From the IMG/VR virus record IMGVR_UViG_2711768014_000003: DNA of 9,837 nucleotides; one strand, 5' to 3'. Positions 1 to 9,837 of the stretch are shown in pieces. This DNA comes from a virus. Taxonomy: Duplodnaviria; Heunggongvirae; Uroviricota; Caudoviricetes. Below the pieces are notes generated by a model. The model worked only from the letters and a program-made list of their open reading frames with translations. It did not search any database and had not been told where the DNA came from. The position numbers were made by a program, and so were the translations under genes. The first letter of the stretch is position 1. Each line of letters opens with the position of its first letter.

Positions 1-186
1 GCTCGCCACGGGAATATCTACGGCAGCAAGCCAGTAATGGGTTAAGTGATAACAGGTGTCTGGAAATATAGGGGCAAATCCAGCGTTCATCAGCCCCCGC
101 ATTGCCGACAGGATCACAGACGGGGGGCGCAACTGGTTGTCGTTCAACTGGCCCAGCTACCGTTCTTGTATCAGAGGTGTGGCTGC

Positions 187-1578
187 ATGACAACACCAGT
201 CTGGCGTAATGATGACCTGGAAGGCGCTGTCATTGGCGCATTCTTTCTGCGTGGGGCAGATCATGAAGTGATGGATATTCTGATCACACTACCGGCGGAC
301 ATTTTTTCTGTACGAGCGTATCGGGATATCTACACAGGCATCTGCAGACAGGCCCGTGTTTCAGGAGTGATTGACCCCGTGCTGTTGTGTAATGAGATGC
401 CGGAACTTGCCCCGGTGATTACTGATACCGGGCGTAAAACCTGGGTGAAGTCTTCACTGGAGCACTATGTTGCAGCGTTGCGGCGCAATGCCGCACTGCG
501 CGATGCAGAAAAAACACTGAATGAGGCGCTGCAGAAATTACGTGATGCGCATACCTGTGAAGCAGCTGAAGATGCCCTGAAGGATGCGCAGAACATGATG
601 GTCACACTGTCGACAGGAAAGGGCGTCATTCAGCCGGTACATATTGATGATGTGCTTCCGGAAGTGGTTGAGCGTGTTGAATGCCGGAATCAGGGGCTGG
701 AGAAATCCAGGACGTTGATGACCGGTATTGATGAACTGGACGCAAAAACAGGCGGTATGGAGCCCGGAGACCTGGTATTCATTGCCGCCCGTCCTTCGAT
801 GGGGAAAACCGAACTTGCGCTGGACATCATCGACAAGGTGACTGAGCAGGGGCATGGTGTGCTTCTGTTCACCATGGAGATGGCGAACATCCAGATTGGT
901 GAACGTATGGTGTCTGCGGCTGGAGGGATGCCAGTATCACGCCTGAAATCTGTGGCTCACTTTGAAGATGAAGACTGGGCGCGTTTCTCACAAGGGGTGG
1001 GGCGGATGACCGGGCGCAATATCTGGATGGTGGACCAGGCGAACCTGACCATTGATGAGATATGCGCAACAACGAAACACCATCTGATTAAACATCCGGA
1101 AACGGCGCTGGTGGTGGTTGATTATCTCGGGCTGATAAAAACCCGAACCACGGGGCGTCATGACCTTGCCGTGGGTGAAATCTCAAAGGGGCTTAAAGGC
1201 CTGGCAAAATCCGGTGGTTTTCCGTTGATTGCGCTGAGCCAGCTCTCCCGCGGTGTGGAGTCCAGACCCAATAAACGTCCCATGAACTCAGACCTGAAAA
1301 ATTCCGGAGAAATAGAGGCGGATGCAGACATCATTCTGATGCTTTACAGGGATGAAGTGTACAACCCGGATACACAGGCTACAGGCATAGCAGAAATTAA
1401 TATCACGAAACAACGTAACGGTTCTCTGGGGACGATTTACCGGCGTTTTTATAACGGACATTTTCTGCCTGTGGACCAGGAAAGCGCACAGGTTCTTTCC
1501 ACCCCAATGCGGCAGCCCCAGCCGCGCAGATACAGCAATACACGTACCGACAGCAGTAAGATGGAGCGTTTCTTTTGA
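187..1578 (+). CDS. Replicative DNA helicase, DnaB-like (phage replication protein)
   Basis: ORF-track frame 46..1578. The N-terminal part (MTTPVWRNDDLEGAVIGAFF...) resembles the DnaB N-domain; the C-terminal part has a Walker A motif (AARPSMGKTELALD) and Walker B-like VVVDYLG. The start is placed at the first ATG (187), preceded by GAGGTG about 8 nt upstream; the 46..186 extension begins with GTG and does not look protein-like. Confidence 0.85.
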   Translation: MTTPVWRNDDLEGAVIGAFFLRGADHEVMDILITLPADIFSVRAYRDIYTGICRQARVSGVIDPVLLCNEMPELAPVITDTGRKTWVKSSLEHYVAALRRNAALRDAEKTLNEALQKLRDAHTCEAAEDALKDAQNMMVTLSTGKGVIQPVHIDDVLPEVVERVECRNQGLEKSRTLMTGIDELDAKTGGMEPGDLVFIAARPSMGKTELALDIIDKVTEQGHGVLLFTMEMANIQIGERMVSAAGGMPVSRLKSVAHFEDEDWARFSQGVGRMTGRNIWMVDQANLTIDEICATTKHHLIKHPETALVVVDYLGLIKTRTTGRHDLAVGEISKGLKGLAKSGGFPLIALSQLSRGVESRPNKRPMNSDLKNSGEIEADADIILMLYRDEVYNPDTQATGIAEINITKQRNGSLGTIYRRFYNGHFLPVDQESAQVLSTPMRQPQPRRYSNTRTDSSKMERFF

Positions 1579-2203: not shown

Positions 2204-2579
2204 TATTCAGCAGGTTATGGAACGGTGGGGGGCTTGGGCTGCAAACACTCATGAAGATGTATCCTGGGCGTCGATCGCTGCTGGTTTTAAAGGGTTAATT
2301 CCGTCGAAAGTGAAATCACGCCCTCAGTGTTCTGATGATGATGCAATGATAATTTGTGGCTGTATGGCCCGGTTGAACAAGAAAAATCAGGATTTGCACG
2401 ATTTGCTGGTGGATTATTACGTAGGTGGAATGACTTTTATGAGTCTGGCACGGAAACATGGGTGTTCGGATACCTGTATTGGCAAGCGCCTGCAGAAAGC
2501 GGAAGGGGTTATTGATGGCATGTTGATGATGCTTGATATCCGGCTGGAGATGGACAGATACGTAGAACGAATTATGTAG
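2193..2579 (+). CDS. Q: Late-gene antitermination protein Q (Q-family antiterminator)
   Basis: The translation ([23 protein letters not shown]...[20 protein letters not shown]...) matches my recollection of the Q antiterminators of Stx-phage and phage-21-type lambdoids, with Cys-rich putative zinc-binding residues. Start chosen at ATG 2193 (AGGTGA 7 nt upstream); an alternative in-frame ATG at 2172 overlaps rusA. A promoter-like element follows the stop immediately. Confidence 0.8.
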
Positions 2580-2583
2580 GTGC

Positions 2584-2613
2584 TTGACCAGACACATTGT
2601 CCGGGGCTATATT
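2584..2613 (+). promoter_or_regulatory. Candidate late promoter (pR'-like): TTGACC, 18-nt spacer, TATATT
   Basis: The -35 hexamer TTGACC (2584-2589) and -10 TATATT (2608-2613) start 5 nt after the Q stop codon, the canonical position of pR' in lambdoid phages. A hairpin (CGCCAG-N6-CTGGCG, 2621-2638) lies in the predicted initial transcript. Confidence 0.5.
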
Positions 2614-2674
2614 CCTCACGCGCCAGCAAAATCTGGCGTCGGGATTGGAACCCCGGATAGAGACCGCGACAGAC

Positions 2675-2698
2675 ACACGCCGCGAGCGTGTTTTTTAT
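2675..2698 (+). terminator. Intrinsic terminator (tR'-like) downstream of the candidate late promoter
   Basis: Stem ACACGC (2675-2680), loop CGCGA, stem GCGTGT (2686-2691), followed by a T-run (2691-2697). It would end a short (~75 nt) 6S-like leader RNA unless antiterminated by Q. Confidence 0.5.
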
Positions 2699-2824
2699 TG
2701 TCGTATGCACGCGCACATCTGAATTATGGTGGGGCGCATGGGGGAGCTGAAAAGCTCGCCGGTCGGTTTCCCGGTAGTTCCAACCCTGTGCGTCTCACCA
2801 CCCGATGATTGGAACCTGACGGTG

Positions 2825-2853
2825 TTGACAGTTTCAGGTTTGCAGTTTACATT
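2825..2853 (+). promoter_or_regulatory. Near-consensus sigma70 promoter (TTGACA, 17 nt, TACATT), likely for the ORF6N gene
   Basis: TTGACA at 2825-2830, exact 17-nt spacer, TACATT at 2848-2853. It is followed about 35 nt later by a weak hairpin (CCACA 2889-2893 / TGTGG 2905-2909) plus a T7 run (2910-2916), then about 145 nt of leader before the ORF6N start. Confidence 0.4.
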
Positions 2854-3059
2854 TCCCCGCGGTGCTCAAAACACCTCGAAAGCGGTATCCACACCCGATA
2901 GCCATGTGGTTTTTTTGTGTCCAGAATTCTTGGTTTATGACCGGGTGTGCGGCTAATACAATACCAGCAATGGAAATACGCCCGCCGACTTTCGACGGTT
3001 TTGAGCGCCCGGTCACCCTCTCAAAAGGGGTAAATCAAAATATTCGAAAGGACATGTCT

Positions 3060-3623
3060 ATGAATCGCACGTCTATTGAAAAACTCCCGTCACTTACGCA
3101 TAACCATCTTCCTGTCATGACAACAGAGCTGCTGGCTGATTTGTACGGAACAGAGCGCCAGCGTTTGACAAACAATTTCAATCGAAACAAAGAACGGTTT
3201 ATAGAAGGTAAACATTTTTTCCTGATAGAAGGTGATGCGTTACGAGAGTTGAAGAACGAAAACTCTTTAAGAGTTTCTGTGAAAATTGCCCGTAACGTTC
3301 GCTCCCTCATCCTCTGGACAGAACGTGGCGCAGCCCGTCACGCCAAAATGCTCGAAACCGATCAGGCGTGGGAAGTGTTCGAAAAACTGGAAGACTGTTA
3401 TTTCAACCAGAAACAGCCACCAGCGGCACAAAACACATCTATCGAAAATGATGGATGCGCATTACTGAGCCACTTCGATAAACACGGTCAGGTTGAGTTC
3501 ACGGAAAAGGTACCCGCCGATGCGATGGTATGTACTCTGGAACGGTTTAAATTTTATCTGGAGCAACACGGGTGGATCGTTGCCCGTAAAGAGCAACTGG
3601 TGGAGCGGTTGATGCGGTTTTAA
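3060..3623 (+). CDS. ORF6N-domain protein (KilA-N/antirepressor-like DNA-binding domain) with uncharacterised C-terminal domain
   Basis: ORF-track 2862..3623. The N-terminal region (HLPVMTTELLADLYGTERQRLTNNFNRNKERFIEGKHFFLIEGDALREL) fits the ORF6N consensus as I recall it (V..T..LA.LYG...R.L...RN..RF.EG..F.L). Start chosen at ATG 3060, with AAAGGA 7 nt upstream; the ATG at 3054 is in frame but too close to the SD. The upstream 64 codons of the ORF are probably untranslated. Confidence 0.7.
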   Translation: MNRTSIEKLPSLTHNHLPVMTTELLADLYGTERQRLTNNFNRNKERFIEGKHFFLIEGDALRELKNENSLRVSVKIARNVRSLILWTERGAARHAKMLETDQAWEVFEKLEDCYFNQKQPPAAQNTSIENDGCALLSHFDKHGQVEFTEKVPADAMVCTLERFKFYLEQHGWIVARKEQLVERLMRF

Positions 3624-3698
3624 AAATTTTTTCCGAAAACTTTACGATCGTAAAAAGTTGAATATCCTGTTAAGAGTGGTTACTACGCCACACAGCTT

Positions 3699-3726
3699 AA
3701 ACCCGCCGATGAGCGGGTTTTTTTAT
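3699..3726 (+). terminator. Intrinsic terminator after the ORF6N gene
   Basis: Stem AAACCCGC (3699-3706), loop CGATGA, stem GCGGGTTT (3713-3720), followed by TTTT (3721-3724). Confidence 0.6.
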
Positions 3727-3774
3727 ACCTGAAAAACGGCACAGGACGTTAAACGTGCTGGTGGTCAGATGAGT

Positions 3775-3803
3775 TTGCAGATGTGATGACATATGGTTAT
3801 TAT
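3775..3803 (+). promoter_or_regulatory. Candidate promoter for the tRNA array (TTGCAG, 17 nt, TATTAT)
   Basis: The -35-like TTGCAG (3775-3780) and -10-like TATTAT (3798-3803) sit about 10 nt upstream of the first tRNA 5' end (3813). Confidence 0.35.
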
Positions 3804-3812
3804 TCTGCCTCC

Positions 3813-3889
3813 GGCCCTTTAGCTCAGTTGGTCAGAGCGAGCGACTCATAATCGCCAGGTCGCTGGTTCAAGTCCAGCAAGGGCCACCA
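3813..3889 (+). tRNA. tRNA with anticodon CAT; sequence resembles E. coli ileX-type tRNA-Ile2 (lysidine, AUA-decoding), although the anticodon alone would read as Met
   Basis: Manual cloverleaf: acceptor GGCCCTT/AAGGGCC, D-arm GCTC...GAGC, anticodon loop CTCATAA (CAT at 3847-3849), T-arm GCTGG-TTCAAGT-CCAGC, discriminator A, encoded CCA. 77 nt. Confidence 0.85.
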
Positions 3890-3890
3890 A

Positions 3891-3967
3891 CCACCACTAG
3901 CTCATCCGGATAGAGCATCAACCTTCTAAGTTGACGGTGCGAGGTTCGAGTCCTCGGTGGTGGGCCA
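3891..3967 (+). tRNA. tRNA-Arg (anticodon TCT, decodes AGA/AGG)
   Basis: Manual fold: acceptor CCACCAC/GTGGTGG (unusual C1-G72), D-arm GCTC...GAGC, anticodon stem TCAAC/GTTGA with loop CTTCTAA (TCT at 3925-3927), T-arm CGAGG-TTCGAGT-CCTCG, discriminator G, encoded CCA. It starts 1 nt after the previous tRNA. Confidence 0.8.
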
Positions 3968-3969
3968 GC

Positions 3970-4045
<76 letters not shown>

Positions 4046-4048
4046 TAT

Positions 4049-4123
<75 letters not shown>

Positions 4124-4570
4124 GCGAGATTTGAGACGAAGGTTGTTATTTGCACTGACACAATATTGTGTGGGAATGTCTGACTCCTTACCATCTCCTG
4201 TTCTGTGATGTTGTTTTGTTGCAGTTCCAGTGCTCTTTTTTCAGCACCAGAATGGTGCATTGTCGGTCAGGTTACGTAGTGAACCTCTGGCAGGGGACTG
4301 ATGATTCATCATTCTGGTGTTGTAAATATCTCTTCGGACAACTTACAAAATATTCTAAGCAAACCCCGGGAACACACTCTTAACTGCCTTGGCTGGCGGT
4401 TTTTTGTACAGCGCTCGGTATGTGTGAGCTGGAAATCAGATTTTGCATGGACTGGAATCATGCTGTTATTTAGGGGCGAAGAACTGGCTTTTTCTTCCGC
4501 CTTCTCACCAGTAACGATTAGAAAAATAATGAAATGCCCCCCTCCGGGGAGGAGGACCGTAGAAAAAAGG

Positions 4571-4628
4571 ACCCGCCAGCAAAAACATTGGGGATGAACA
4601 GCTTTCGCTACTCAGATTGCTGGCGGGT
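4571..4628. repeat. 12-bp perfect inverted repeat (ACCCGCCAGCAA, 34-nt spacer, TTGCTGGCGGGT)
   Basis: Arms at 4571-4582 and 4617-4628 are exact reverse complements. On the minus strand the structure is followed by CCTTTTTTCT (complement of 4561-4570), so it could act as a minus-strand terminator or a structured RNA/protein-binding element. Confidence 0.5.
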
Positions 4629-5019: not shown

Positions 5020-5166
5020 TGTCGCCATCATTACGCAAGGCTGTTGCAGCTGCTATTGGTGGTGGGGCTGTTGCTATAGCATCTGTGTTAATCACTGGCC
5101 CAGGTGGTAACGATGGTCTGGAAGGTGTCAGCTACATACCATACAAAGATATCATTGGTGTATGGA
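5019..5166 (+). CDS. R: SAR endolysin (R21-type lysozyme), 5' part only; 3' part lost in the N run
   Basis: The N-terminus ([52 protein letters not shown]) matches the signal-anchor-release domain of phage 21 R as I recall it. The ORF runs into the Ns at 5167, so the catalytic domain is not visible. Confidence 0.85.
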
Positions 5167-5483
5167 CTGTATGTCANNNNNNNNNNNNNNNNNNNNNNNN
5201 NNNNNNNNNNNNNNNNNNNNNNNNNNNNNNNNNNNNNNNNNNNNNNNNNNNNNNNNNNNNNNNNNNNNNNNNNNNNNNNNNNNNNNNNNNNNNNNNNNNN
5301 NNNNNNNNNNNNNNNNNNNNNNNNNNNNNNNNNNNNNNNNNNNNNNNNNNNNNNNNNNNNNNNNNNNNNNNNNNNNNNNNNNNNNNNNNNNNNNNNNNNN
5401 NNNNNNNNNNNNNNNNNNNNNNNNNNNNNNNNNNNNNNNNNNNNNNNNNNNNNNNNNNNNNNNNNNNNNNNNNNNNNNNNNNN
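5167..5483. other. Run of 317 N (assembly gap or masked sequence)
   Basis: Directly visible. It interrupts the endolysin 3' region and the 5' regions of Rz and Rz1. The apparent in-frame continuity across the Ns in the ORF track is an artefact. Confidence 0.99.
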
Positions 5484-5660
5484 GCAGTCTGTCAGTCAGT
5501 GCGTGAAGCCACCACCGCCTCCGGCGTGGATAATGCAACCAGCCCCCGACTGGCAGACACCGCTGAACGGGATTATTTCACCCTCAGAGAGCGGCTGATG
5601 ACGATGCAGATGCAACTGGAAGGGGCACAGGAGTATATCCGCACTCAGTGCATTAAGTAG
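5484..5660 (+). CDS. Rz: Rz i-spanin, C-terminal part only (5' end in gap)
   Basis: The translation after the gap (AVCQSVREATTASGVDNATSPRLADTAERDYFTLRERLMTMQMQLEGAQEYIRTQCIK) closely matches my recollection of the lambda Rz C-terminus. Stop at 5658-5660. Confidence 0.85.
   Translation, partial: AVCQSVREATTASGVDNATSPRLADTAERDYFTLRERLMTMQMQLEGAQEYIRTQCIK
5485..5598 (+). CDS. Rz1: Rz1 o-spanin, C-terminal part only, embedded in the +1 frame of Rz (5' end in gap)
   Basis: The +1 frame after the gap gives QSVSQCVKPPPPPAWIMQPAPDWQTPLNGIISPSESG, matching the proline-rich lambda Rz1 C-terminus as I recall it. The lipobox and start lie in the N run. Confidence 0.8.
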   Translation, partial: QSVSQCVKPPPPPAWIMQPAPDWQTPLNGIISPSESG

Positions 5661-6174: not shown

Positions 6175-6669
6175 ATGGCTGGAACGGCGGGGCGTTCCGG
6201 GCGTCGCCCCAAGCCAACGGCGCGCAAGGCGCTGGCCGGAAACCCCGGCAAGCGAGCCCTGAACAAAGATGAACCTGTTTTTACGCCCATCAAAGGTGTT
6301 GAGCCACCAGAGTGGTTCGCTGAAGAAGATCTCCCTCTCGCCACGATCATGTGGCAACTGACAACCAAAGAACTCTGCGGTCAGGGCCTGCTGTGCGTGA
6401 CTGACCTGGCGGTACTTGAGCGGTGGTGCGTGGCCTATGAGTTCTGGCGACGTGCCGTGAAAAATATTGCCATACAGGGCAACACCATCACCGGTGCAAT
6501 GGGCGGCAGGGTCAAAAATCCGGAGCTGACCGCCAAAAAAGAACAGGAGTCCGAGATGAGCAGCACGGGGGCAATGCTCGGACTCGACCCCAGCAGCCGC
6601 CAGCGTCTGATTGGCCTGGCGGGGCAGAAGAAAGCCACTAACCCGTTTCTGAAAATTATCGAATCATGA
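6175..6669 (+). CDS. Terminase small subunit (P27-family-like)
   Basis: ORF-track 6166..6669. ATG at 6175 with CAGGAG 8 nt upstream. Basic N-terminus ([27 protein letters not shown]) and overall resemblance to the P27-family small terminases as I recall them. The stop overlaps the terL start (ATGA). Confidence 0.75.
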
Positions 6670-8399
6670 GCCGGAAATCTTACCCCAACGTAAATGCTGC
6701 AAATCAGTATGCCCGGGATGTCGTGCGCGGAAAGATTGTTGCCTGCCAGTTTGTGATTCAGGCCTGCCAGCGCCATCTTGATGACCTGATGGCGGAAAAA
6801 AGTAAGTCGTTTCGTTACCGCTTCGACAAGGACCTGGCTGAACGGGCCGCGAAATTTATTCAGCTGTTGCCGCACACCAAGGGGGAGTGGGCATTCAAAC
6901 GGATGCCCATCACGCTGGAGCCGTGGCAGCTATTTGTGATCTGCTGTGCGTTTGGCTGGGTCAATAAAGGCACCCGGTTGCGCCGCTTCCGGGAGGTGTA
7001 CACCGAAATCCCCCGTAAGAACGGCAAATCAGCAATCTCTGCCGGTGTTGCCCTGTATTGTTTTGCCTGTGATAACGAGTTTGGCGCGGAAGTGTATTCC
7101 GGTGCCACGACAGAGAAACAGGCGTGGGAAGTCTTTCGCCCGGCGCGACTGATGTGTAAACGCACACCCATGCTGACGGAAGCGTTCGGGATTGAGGTTA
7201 ACGCCTCAAACATGAACCGTCCGGAGGATGGCGCGCGGTTTGAACCGCTGATCGGCAACCCAGGTGATGGTTCATCACCCCACTGTGCCGTGGTTGATGA
7301 ATATCACGAGCATGCCACCGATGCGCTTTATACCACAATGCTTACCGGGATGGGGGCGCGACGTCAGCCACTGATGTGGGCCATCACCACCGCCGGGTAC
7401 AACATTGAGGGGCCGTGCTACGACAAGCGGCGGGAAGTCATCGAGATGCTCAACGGCTCGGTGCCTAACGATGAACTGTTCGGGATCATCTATACCGTTG
7501 ATGAAGGTGACGACTGGACCGGCCCGCAGGTGCTGGAAAAAGCCAATCCAAATATTGGCGTGTCGGTTTATCGCGAATTTTTGTTAAGTCAGCAGCAGCG
7601 TGCGAAAAATAACGCCCGTCTGGCAAACGTCTTTAAAACAAAACACCTCAATATCTGGGTGTCGGCGCGTTCGGCGTATTTCAACTTGGTGAGCTGGCAG
7701 AGCTGCGAGGATAAATCACTGACCCTTGAGCAGTTCGAGGGGCAGCCGTGCATTCTGGCCTTTGACCTGGCGCGTAAGCTGGATATGAACAGCATGGCGC
7801 GACTTTATACCCGCGAGATTGACGGTAAAACGCATTACTACAGTGTGGCCCCGCGTTTCTGGGTACCGTATGACACGGTGTACAGCGTCGAGAAAAATGA
7901 AGATCGACGGACAGCCGAACGCTTTCAGAAATGGGTGGAAATGGGCGTTCTGACCGTTACCGATGGTGCGGAGGTGGATTATCGCTACATCCTCGAGGAG
8001 GCCAAAGCGGCGAACAAAATCAGCCCGGTCAGTGAGTCACCCATCGACCCCTTCGGGGCGACCGGGTTGTCACATGACCTTGCTGATGAAGACCTGAATC
8101 CCGTCACTATCGTCCAGAACTTCACCAATATGTCCGATCCGATGAAAGAGCTGGAAGCAGCGATTGAATCGGGACGTTTTCATCATGACGGCAATCCCAT
8201 CATGACCTGGTGTATCGGCAACGTGGTCGGCAAAAACATGCCGGGTAACGATGATGTGGTGAAACCCGTCAAAGAGCAGGCGGAAAACAAAATCGATGGT
8301 GCAGTTGCGCTGATTATGGCGGTTGGCAGAGCCATGCTGTACGAGAAAGAAGACACGCTGTCTGACCACATTGAGTCCTACGGGATCCGCTCGCTTTAA
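6666..8399 (+). CDS. Terminase large subunit (ATPase plus nuclease)
   Basis: 577-aa product with a P-loop-like motif ([14 protein letters not shown]) and Walker B-like VVDEYHE. Length and position (after terS, before portal) are typical of Terminase_1-type large subunits. Confidence 0.9.
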
Positions 8400-8410
8400 C
8401 TGAGGTAATT

Positions 8411-8593
8411 ATGATCATGCTGATTCTCGCGCCTCTGGTGGGCGTGCTGGGTGCGCTTTTGCTGGCGTATGGTGCCTGGCTGATTTATCCCCCGGCGGGT
8501 TTTGTTGTTGCCGGGGCGCTGTGCCTGTTCTGGTCGTGGCTGGTGGCGCGATATCTCGACCGTACACGGCAGTCTGTCGGCGGAGGTAAATAG
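8411..8593 (+). CDS. Small hydrophobic membrane protein (two predicted TM helices), function unknown
   Basis: The 60-aa product ([60 protein letters not shown]) has GAGGT 5 nt upstream of ATG 8411. Its TAG stop overlaps a GTG (TAGTG) that is preceded by GGAGG. Confidence 0.5.
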
Positions 8594-9749
8594 TGTTCTT
8601 TTCGGGATTATTTCAACGAAAAAGCGATGTGCCGGTGACCACGCCAGCAGAACTGCTGATGCTATCGGGCTGTCATACGACACCTATACCGGAAAGCGGA
8701 TCAGTAGCCAGCGGGCCATGCGCCTGACGGCGGTCTATTCTTGCGTCAGGGTGCTGGCAGAGTCTGTTGGTATGCTGCCCTGCAGTCTCTACAAAATCAG
8801 CGGTACCCTGAAAACACGGGCGGTGGATGAACGACTGCATAAGTTGGTTTCGGCAAAACCTAATGGCTACATGACACCGCAGGAATTCTGGGAGCTGGTT
8901 ATTGTCTGCCTGTGTCTACGGGGGAATTTTTACGCCTACAAGGTAAAGGCACTGGGAGAAGTGGTGGAGCTTCTTCCGATAGATCCGGGCTGTGTGGAAC
9001 CGAAGCTGAACAGCCAGTGGCAGCCGGTTTATCAGGTGACGTTTCCGGATGGTTCCGTGGATGTGTTGACCCAGAATGAAATCTGGCATGTGCGCACCCT
9101 GACGCTGGATGGACTTGTCGGGCTGAATCCCATTGCGTATGCGCGTGAGGCCATTTCACTGGCAGCGGCAACCGAGGAGCACGGTGCCAGGTTGTTTAGT
9201 AATGGTGCGGTGACATCCGGTGTGTTGCGTACGGAACAAAAGCTCACGCCGGATGCTTACGAGCGTCTGAAGAAAGATTTTGAGGAGTGTCACACGGGGC
9301 TTGGCAATGCTCACCGCCCGATGATTCTGGAAATGGGGCTGGACTGGAAGTCGATGGCGCTGAACGCCGAGGACAGTCAGTTCCTGGAAACCCGCAAGTT
9401 TCAGCTGGAAGAAATCTGTCGTCTGTTCCGGGTGCCGTTGCACATGGTGCAGAACACCGATCGCGCCACCTTCAACAATATCGAAGAGCTGGGGCTGGGA
9501 TTTATCAACTATTCACTGGTGCCGTATCTGACCCGCATCGAACAGCGGATCAACACCGGACTGGTACGAAAAAGTAAGCAGGGCGTTTATTACGCCAAAT
9601 TTAACGCCGGGGCGTTACTGCGCGGGGATATGAAGTCCCGTTTTGAAGCCTACGCCACCGGGATCAACTGGGGAATTTACTCTTCCAATGACTGCCGCGA
9701 CCTGGAAGATATGAATCCGCGTCCCGGTGGTGTAATGCCGATCAGTTAA
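8593..9749 (+). CDS. Portal protein, HK97-family-like; reading frame apparently disrupted near the 5' end (frameshift, pseudogene or sequencing error)
   Basis: The body (frame of ORF-track 8502..9749) carries portal-like motifs (RAMRLTAVYSCVRVLAESVGMLP...). That frame has no in-frame ATG or GTG before 8718. An RBS-backed GTG at 8593 (GGAGG 6 nt upstream, coupled to the upstream stop) opens a different frame encoding MFFSGLFQRKSDVPVTTPAELLMLSG..., which stops at 8725-8727. Confidence 0.7.
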
Positions 9750-9782
9750 GGATCAGTTGACCGATCCAGTGGCTGTGTAAGA

Positions 9783-9817
9783 ATCCGGAAACGCTCACTT
9801 GTTTCCGGATTTTTTTA
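9783..9817 (+). terminator. Intrinsic terminator downstream of the portal gene
   Basis: Perfect 10-bp stem ATCCGGAAAC (9783-9792) / GTTTCCGGAT (9801-9810), 8-nt loop, followed by TTTTTTT (9811-9817). Confidence 0.7.
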
Positions 9818-9837
9818 TGCACATTGGACAGGCTCTT

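Follow-up and report, generated by a model that had tools for sequence, protein, structure and literature searches.

A frameshifted and IS4-truncated portal pseudogene in a decayed prophage of Shigella sonnei

In the stretch of DNA analysed here (IMG/VR record IMGVR_UViG_2711768014_000003, 9,837 nucleotides, called the window below), the portal gene of a tailed phage appears in two pieces, a plausible N-terminus in one reading frame and a long body in another, which raises the question of whether the gene has been broken by a mutation, has been misread during sequencing, or is still expressed as a single protein. As the original prediction had described, the first frame opens at GTG 8593-8595, with GGAGG at 8582-8586 (spacing 6 nt), and this GTG shares one base with the TAG stop (8591-8593) of the preceding ymfR-like gene (TAGTG). 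The frame runs over 44 codons (8593..8727), its product begins with MFFSGLFQRKSDVPVTTPAELLMLSG and it is closed by TGA at 8725-8727. The long portal ORF (8502..9749) lies in the -1 frame, with TTG as start codon and its earliest ATG at 8718, also as predicted, and matches the Pfam family Phage_portal (PF04860) over residues 77-403 with E=3.3e-107 (358.8 bits for a cut-off of 39.1; profile positions 2-321 of 321). The locus thus has the family profile of an HK97-type portal, and it has the head-operon position as well, the order large terminase (TerL), ymfR-like gene, portal being that of phiP27 and SfIV (Table 1).

No single frame leads from the native start codon to a native stop, as a 1-nt deletion and a junction with the insertion sequence IS4 interrupt the gene; among PF04860 portals it is therefore a pseudogene and not a functional member. 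With 20 of 21 residues identical in the first frame and about 359 residues running collinear with intact portals in the second, the portal homology in both frames cannot be explained by chance. We propose, with a probability of about 95%, that a P27/SfIV/ST64B-type prophage (HK97-like head) has decayed in the Shigella sonnei chromosome and that the locus is its portal gene, inactivated by a frameshift and by IS4 truncation. All the S. sonnei assemblies examined showed both lesions, at the same exact positions; the order in which the two arose, and the absence of a functional portal, are what we infer.

Table 1. Coordinates of the portal pseudogene, its neighbours and the bounding insertion sequences in the window
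Feature	Position	Strand	Basis or remark
IS2-like element end	1..83	.	left boundary of the remnant and left contig end
Large terminase gene	6666..8399	+	intact, 577 aa; Pfam TerL_ATPase and TerL_nuclease; length equals SfIV TerL
ymfR-like small membrane protein gene, 60 aa	8411..8593	+	ORF list; ymfR/membrane protein in phiP27, E. coli A36 and K-12 e14
Portal Shine-Dalgarno GGAGG	8582..8586	+	read in the sequence; invariant among relatives
Portal pseudogene codons 1-21, original frame, native GTG	8593..8655	+	20/21 identical to phiP27, SfIV and e14 BeeE
1-nt deletion site, one G of ancestral CTGGCT lost	8654..8656	+	lone alignment gap
Portal pseudogene body, codons 22-380, -1 frame	8656..9732	+	PF04860; 93.7% nt identity to phiP27
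343-aa ORF of gene callers, first body-frame ATG to stop within IS4	8718..9749	+	
Premature TGA closing the 44-codon frameshifted product	8725..8727	+	sequence and ORF list
IS4 left end, terminal repeat TAATGCCGATCAGTTAAG	9733..9837	+	100% match to IS4/InsG; replaces codons 381-413; window ends within

The comparison with intact portals that had been suggested as a check was made on DNA, by aligning positions 8560-8800 of the window with three intact relatives (phiP27, SfIV and E. coli A36), and places the shift at 8654-8656, between residues 21 and 22. The alignment contains a single gap: the relatives read GAGCTGGCGGA and the window GAACTG-CTGA, one of two Gs having gone. At this site the relatives carry CTGGC(T/G), with CTGGCG in the three that were aligned, and the window CTG-CT. 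The loss of one base had been predicted between about 8620 and 8690, and this part of the prediction holds; the A5 run at 8619-8623, which had been pointed out in this connection, was rejected as the site, because it is identical in all four aligned sequences and thus invariant in the intact relatives. The 8593 frame resembles the intact portals over residues 1-21 and the -1 frame does so from residue 22 onwards (ADAIGLSYDTYTGKRISSQRAMRLTAV...), so that the homology passes after Leu21 from MFFSGLFQRKSDVPVTTPAEL in the 8593 frame to ADAIGLSYD in the -1 frame. When a G is inserted after 8655, 380 unbroken codons are obtained, which align collinearly with the portals of phiP27 and SfIV. In the frame restored in this way, neither of the two substitutions flanking the gap (GAG>GAA and GCG>GCT) alters the amino acid. 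Compared with phiP27, codons 1-21 show 5 synonymous and 1 non-synonymous changes, and the complete restored gene has 68 codons with synonymous and 10 with non-synonymous differences. This synonymous excess indicates that, until recently, the 8593 frame was still evolving as protein-coding DNA. One IMG/VR contig (L014) has an intact allele with exactly GAACTGGCTGAT. In our reading, the DNA comparison with intact relatives at 88-94% identity settles the question of the frameshift.

The same relatives bear on the native start. In this region the nucleotide identity is 93.7% with phiP27, about 88-89% with SfI, SfII, SfIV and the Salmonella phage ST64B, and up to 93.6% with prophages of complete E. 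coli genomes, and in each listed phage or E. coli alignment the subject span equals the query span plus one base. The annotated portal is 413 aa long in phiP27, E. coli A36 and SfIV. Where the small upstream gene is annotated, the portal of the relatives starts at a GTG overlapping the ymfR-like stop, equivalent to 8593, and the same arrangement is seen in the K-12 cryptic prophage e14, where ymfR is followed by the portal-derived ORF beeE. The outcome which the original prediction had named as speaking against it, intact homologues starting at the equivalent of ATG 8718 or TTG 8502, did not occur: they start at the GTG equivalent to 8593 and have in common the N-terminus MFFSGLFQRKSD. It could still be argued that the gene is unbroken, that it truly starts at ATG 8718 (or at TTG 8502) and that the 8593 frame is noise or an independent small gene, and automatic annotation does name the 343-aa ORF from ATG 8718 "portal protein". 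We see a very slight chance for this reading, as the 8593 frame matches the intact N-termini at 20 of its first 21 residues, the -1 frame encodes the counterparts of intact-portal residues 22-42 ahead of ATG 8718, and the extension from TTG 8502 has no counterpart in any homologue in the protein alignment; both codons were rejected as native starts on these grounds. Furthermore, by eye, ATG 8718 is preceded by no recognisable Shine-Dalgarno sequence.

A second way to save the gene is to suppose that the genome is intact and that one G was dropped in a draft assembly, and the window is clearly a short-read draft contig, with an IS2-like start, an IS4 end and a 307-N gap standing for 624 bp. Against this, the deletion site (CTG-CTG) is not a homopolymer run, and the 201 bp from 8560 to 8760 show zero differences in 10 of 10 chromosome-scale S. 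sonnei assemblies (4.78-5.04 Mb) obtained by different projects; positions 8400-9837 are identical in the 9 of 9 assemblies compared (all except L009). The comparison with the same prophage in related genomes, which had been recommended, thus finds an identical deletion in all S. sonnei assemblies examined. Six IMG/VR contigs share the deleted version as well, and gene callers begin the ORF at ATG 8718 on at least 1000 contigs carrying the exact 343-aa sequence (indexed in 1695 blocks), the named cluster members listed being all from Shigella sonnei and annotated as portal protein or partial. This leaves the error practically no probability, and sequencing error as the cause of the frameshift, the escape left by the original prediction, is excluded. 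Among 5426 complete E. coli genomes the deleted allele was not found, the matches being at most 95% identical (best 94.8%, over 8500-8900) and carrying the extra base in every listed match. Exact-pattern scans of a genome-contig collection with the deleted and the restored sequence gave no match, a result uninformative on the feature, S. sonnei being perhaps unrepresented there, which is a guess.

The two frames could also be united during expression, by programmed -1 ribosomal frameshifting or by transcriptional slippage, giving a full N-terminus. Programmed -1 frameshifting occurs in phage late genes such as the tail chaperone G/GT of lambda; recoding is not known in the portal gene family. 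The -1 frame is open throughout 8502-9749, so that a slip anywhere in 8593-8724 would read through, and the A5 run is at hand at 8619-8623. But no slippery heptamer X XXY YYZ was found in any frame of 8593-8727, and the only runs of this segment, T4 and A5, are too short for efficient transcriptional slippage. The A5 run is moreover unchanged in homologues whose frame is continuous, and a slip at this run would give other residues in place of the conserved SDVPVTTPAEL; the gene is truncated by IS4 anyway. The two-frame arrangement was not seen among the homologues, the phages and the listed E. coli matches being single-frame with one extra base. The remark in the original prediction that programmed frameshifting is not known for portal genes is in line with these data, and we give recoding next to no credence.

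The remaining question is whether the broken gene still yields something of use. ATG 8718 sits just upstream (about 5 nt) of the premature TGA (ATGCGCCTGA), a layout compatible with termination-reinitiation, which could in principle yield, as read from the sequence, a 343-aa product shortened by 42 residues at the N-terminus and by 33 at the C-terminus; there is no sign that this product would be functional. The remnant, including the doubly truncated fragment, could nevertheless have been kept as useful, for example by hindering the assembly of superinfecting phages of the SfI/SfII/SfIV type. It is in agreement with such a role that TerS, TerL, the lysis genes and the tRNAs are intact, that the remnant is alike in every S. 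sonnei assembly examined, and that the Shigella phages are about 88% identical to it in nucleotides of the portal gene. On the other side, neither expression nor selection is evident, the 343-aa fragment has no Shine-Dalgarno sequence, and S. sonnei is a young clone with zero variation at this locus, so that conservation is uninformative and descent is enough to explain fixation. A role of this kind therefore has a slight chance in our view. The specific form it might take, in which residues 43-380 plus VMPIS, reinitiated at ATG 8718, would act as a dominant-negative subunit poisoning the portal rings of superinfecting SfI/SfII/SfIV/P27-type phages, is likewise very doubtful; if it were true, the remnant would be a domesticated anti-phage element and not junk.

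The frameshift is not the only lesion of the portal. The homology to portals ends at 9732 and IS4 begins at 9733, the first 105 bp of the element being present in the window. The tail of the portal ORF reads ...PGG-VMPIS-stop, of which the last five codons and the stop (9732-9749) belong to IS4, and 33 portal codons are missing. The original prediction was right on the 5' frameshift and missed this second, larger lesion. The two lesions co-occur, every sequence with one of them having the other.

The element could be followed beyond the end of the window in the S. sonnei chromosomes. A full copy in L009 (11016-12441) measures 1426 bp and has matching terminal inverted repeats, the left end being TAATGCCGATCAGTTAAG and the right end differing by 2 mismatches, and the transposase in S. 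sonnei chromosomes has 442 aa with the domains Nterm_IS4 and DDE_Tnp_1. IS4 is an element of 1426 bp with 18-bp terminal inverted repeats, and length, repeats and DDE transposase agree in identifying it here. In several strains an IS2-like element has inserted into this IS4 and lengthens it by 1336 bp; the strains with a bamE flank whose junction was read (L004-L006) are of this kind.

At the right flank of IS4 in the S. sonnei chromosomes a target-site duplication (11-13 bp) is absent, the flank being unrelated chromosomal DNA, and the 12 bp directly before the element (GTCCCGGTGGTG) have no copy after its right end. To the right of IS4 lie bamE-recN-nadK-grpE or, in two strains, raiA-pheL-pheA-tyrA-aroF, and within 10 kb on this side none of the 10 S. 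sonnei chromosomes carries protease, capsid or tail genes. The two different right neighbours of the same IS4 copy can be taken as evidence of IS4-mediated inversion or rearrangement within S. sonnei. Since the duplication is absent and the prophage DNA that should follow is gone, recombination or deletion involving IS4 came after the original insertion, and the junction seen in the window is the left half of an IS4 insertion later rearranged.

One IMG/VR contig (L020, IMGVR_UViG_2663762996_000003) has the same 1-nt deletion in the portal and carries, at the right junction of IS4, the 12-bp duplication GTCCCGGTGGTG followed by the rest of the portal and by protease, capsid and tail genes. On its sequence, this contig shows that IS4 first entered the portal by simple insertion. 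This right junction (CTGGCATTA followed directly by GTCCCGGTGGTGATGTC) was found in IMG/VR only on L020, and in no complete E. coli genome. Positions 2433-4582 of the contig hold a frameshifted portal running to its natural stop, then N, an inverted hairpin copy of IS4, and IS4 from nt 69; after the 12-bp duplication stands a second copy of 386 bp of portal and protease, differing at 3 positions. With N, an inverted IS4 hairpin and a 386-bp duplicate around its left junction, the contig is read as a chimeric or scaffolded assembly, probably between the remnant and a second SfIV-like prophage. The missing right half may survive elsewhere in some genomes. The 228-aa protease of L020 was considered as a mark of the IS4 right junction and rejected, 228 aa being the annotated length in SfIV; because of this equal length, an S. 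sonnei label on a 228-aa protein is no evidence for a surviving other half.

The portal fragment is part of a remnant of about 9.65 kb between the IS2-like element and IS4. Positions 1-83 of the window match the terminus of the 1331-bp IS3-family insert inside the IS4 of L004, and in S. sonnei chromosomes the remnant is preceded on its left side by transposase ORFs of 121 and 301 aa with HTH_Tnp_1 and rve domains. Between these bounds lie a truncated dnaB-like gene, rusA, Q, an ORF6N-domain gene, four tRNAs, holin, lysozyme and Rz, and then HNH, TerS, TerL, ymfR and the portal fragment. Since genes needed to build a virion are missing at the locus and rearrangement scars bound it, this is a cryptic prophage remnant. 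The predicted portal pseudogene thus stands, and the failure to package that had been thought likely has a more basic cause, the prophage being an IS-bounded fragment without other head or tail genes. Several S. sonnei chromosomes agree with the window at 100% identity on either side of the N run. A literature search found no paper on this remnant.

Several observations were made along the remnant outside the portal. The flanks of the N run (5177-5483, 307 N) are 624 bp apart in S. sonnei chromosomes, the hidden segment extending from the 3' end of lysozyme to the 5' end of Rz. Over 5048-5627, on both sides of the N run, L009 has about 30 clustered differences from the window, and it differs elsewhere only in the stretch hidden by N; these lysis-cassette differences look like a recombination patch or a collapse of paralogues and may be why the draft has a gap. 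Between the Q-like and the ORF6N-domain genes, Rfam matches at gathering level were obtained for c4-a1b1 targets (2607-2659), isrK (2620-2696), C4 antisense RNA (2722-2805) and sRNA-Xcc1 (2939-3022), a cluster (2607-3022) which suggests that a P1/P7-type C4 antisense immunity module or an IsrK/anti-Q-type module has been kept. The four tRNAs (Met-CAT, Arg-TCT, Thr-TGT and Gly-TCC; 3813-4123), upstream of the lysis cassette, are all intact. The dnaB-like helicase ORF (84-1578) begins directly after the IS2-like end, so that the 510-aa ORF of the program-made list is artificially extended into the IS, gene callers giving 463 aa from a start at 187, and in L007 and L013 another IS lies within this gene at about window position 416-419. 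In four of the ten assemblies (L007, L010, L011 and L013), TerL (locus about 7949-9682, corresponding to 6666-8399 of the window) is called as an ORF 498 aa long or split into 194 and 341 aa, and not 577 aa, and the TerL region has more indels in the alignments of L007, L010 and L013; the shorter or split TerL could come from errors of long-read assembly or from further decay in some strains.

Taken together, these data describe a gene inactivated by two lesions. The portal would at first have begun at GTG 8593, translationally coupled to the ymfR-like gene. The loss of one G from CTGGCT at 8654-8656 shifts the frame after Leu21, so that ribosomes starting at the native GTG would make a 44-residue peptide and halt at 8725-8727. 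The IS4 abutting codon 380 (9732/9733) removes the last 33 codons and adds VMPIS and a stop, and later recombination or deletion involving IS4 would have taken away the prophage DNA beyond the element.

For annotation, the locus should be described as one portal pseudogene (8593-9732) with a frameshift at 8654-8656 and a 3' end truncated by IS4, and not as a 343-aa "portal protein", and prophage predictors should not count it as a sign of a packaging-competent phage. The two lesions, present in all S. sonnei sequences examined and absent from the complete E. coli genomes, could mark the lineage. The locus also illustrates the dismantling of Shigella prophages by IS4 and IS2; beyond annotation it carries little weight.

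The closest known counterparts are the portals of phiP27, SfI/SfII/SfIV and ST64B, which share the order HNH, TerS, TerL, ymfR-like gene, portal and the same overlap of GTG and ymfR stop, and are 88-94% identical in nucleotides to the window over codons 1-380. These phage portals are intact with 413 aa, whereas in the window a G is gone after codon 21 and codons 381-413 have been replaced by IS4. The beeE gene of e14, which sits beside ymfR in another defective prophage, is likewise a decayed portal; its N-terminus (MFFSGLFQRKSDAPVTTPAELADAIG...) is identical and it has the same TAGTG start. In contrast to the window, where a frameshift separates N-terminus and body and IS4 has taken the place of the C-terminus, beeE is a 157-aa N-terminal fragment that arose through an internal deletion of the prophage. 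The portal locus resembles the lambda G/GT frameshift in that two frames of a phage late operon overlap and the second part lies in the -1 frame, but it has no slippery heptamer and its two-frame arrangement is not conserved among homologues. In S. sonnei, IS1, IS2, IS4, IS600 and IS911 have expanded (Hawkey et al. 2020, PMC7373316), about 50% of the pseudogenes are caused by IS, and 12% of the interrupted genes carry an IS together with another lesion (PMC7373316). Prophages are not mentioned in that article (the word has 0 occurrences). The portal locus, with its IS4 and IS2 bounds and its combination of an IS with an indel, fits the IS decay described there (PMC7373316) as simply one more instance, and is an ordinary pseudogene in an IS-ridden pathogen.
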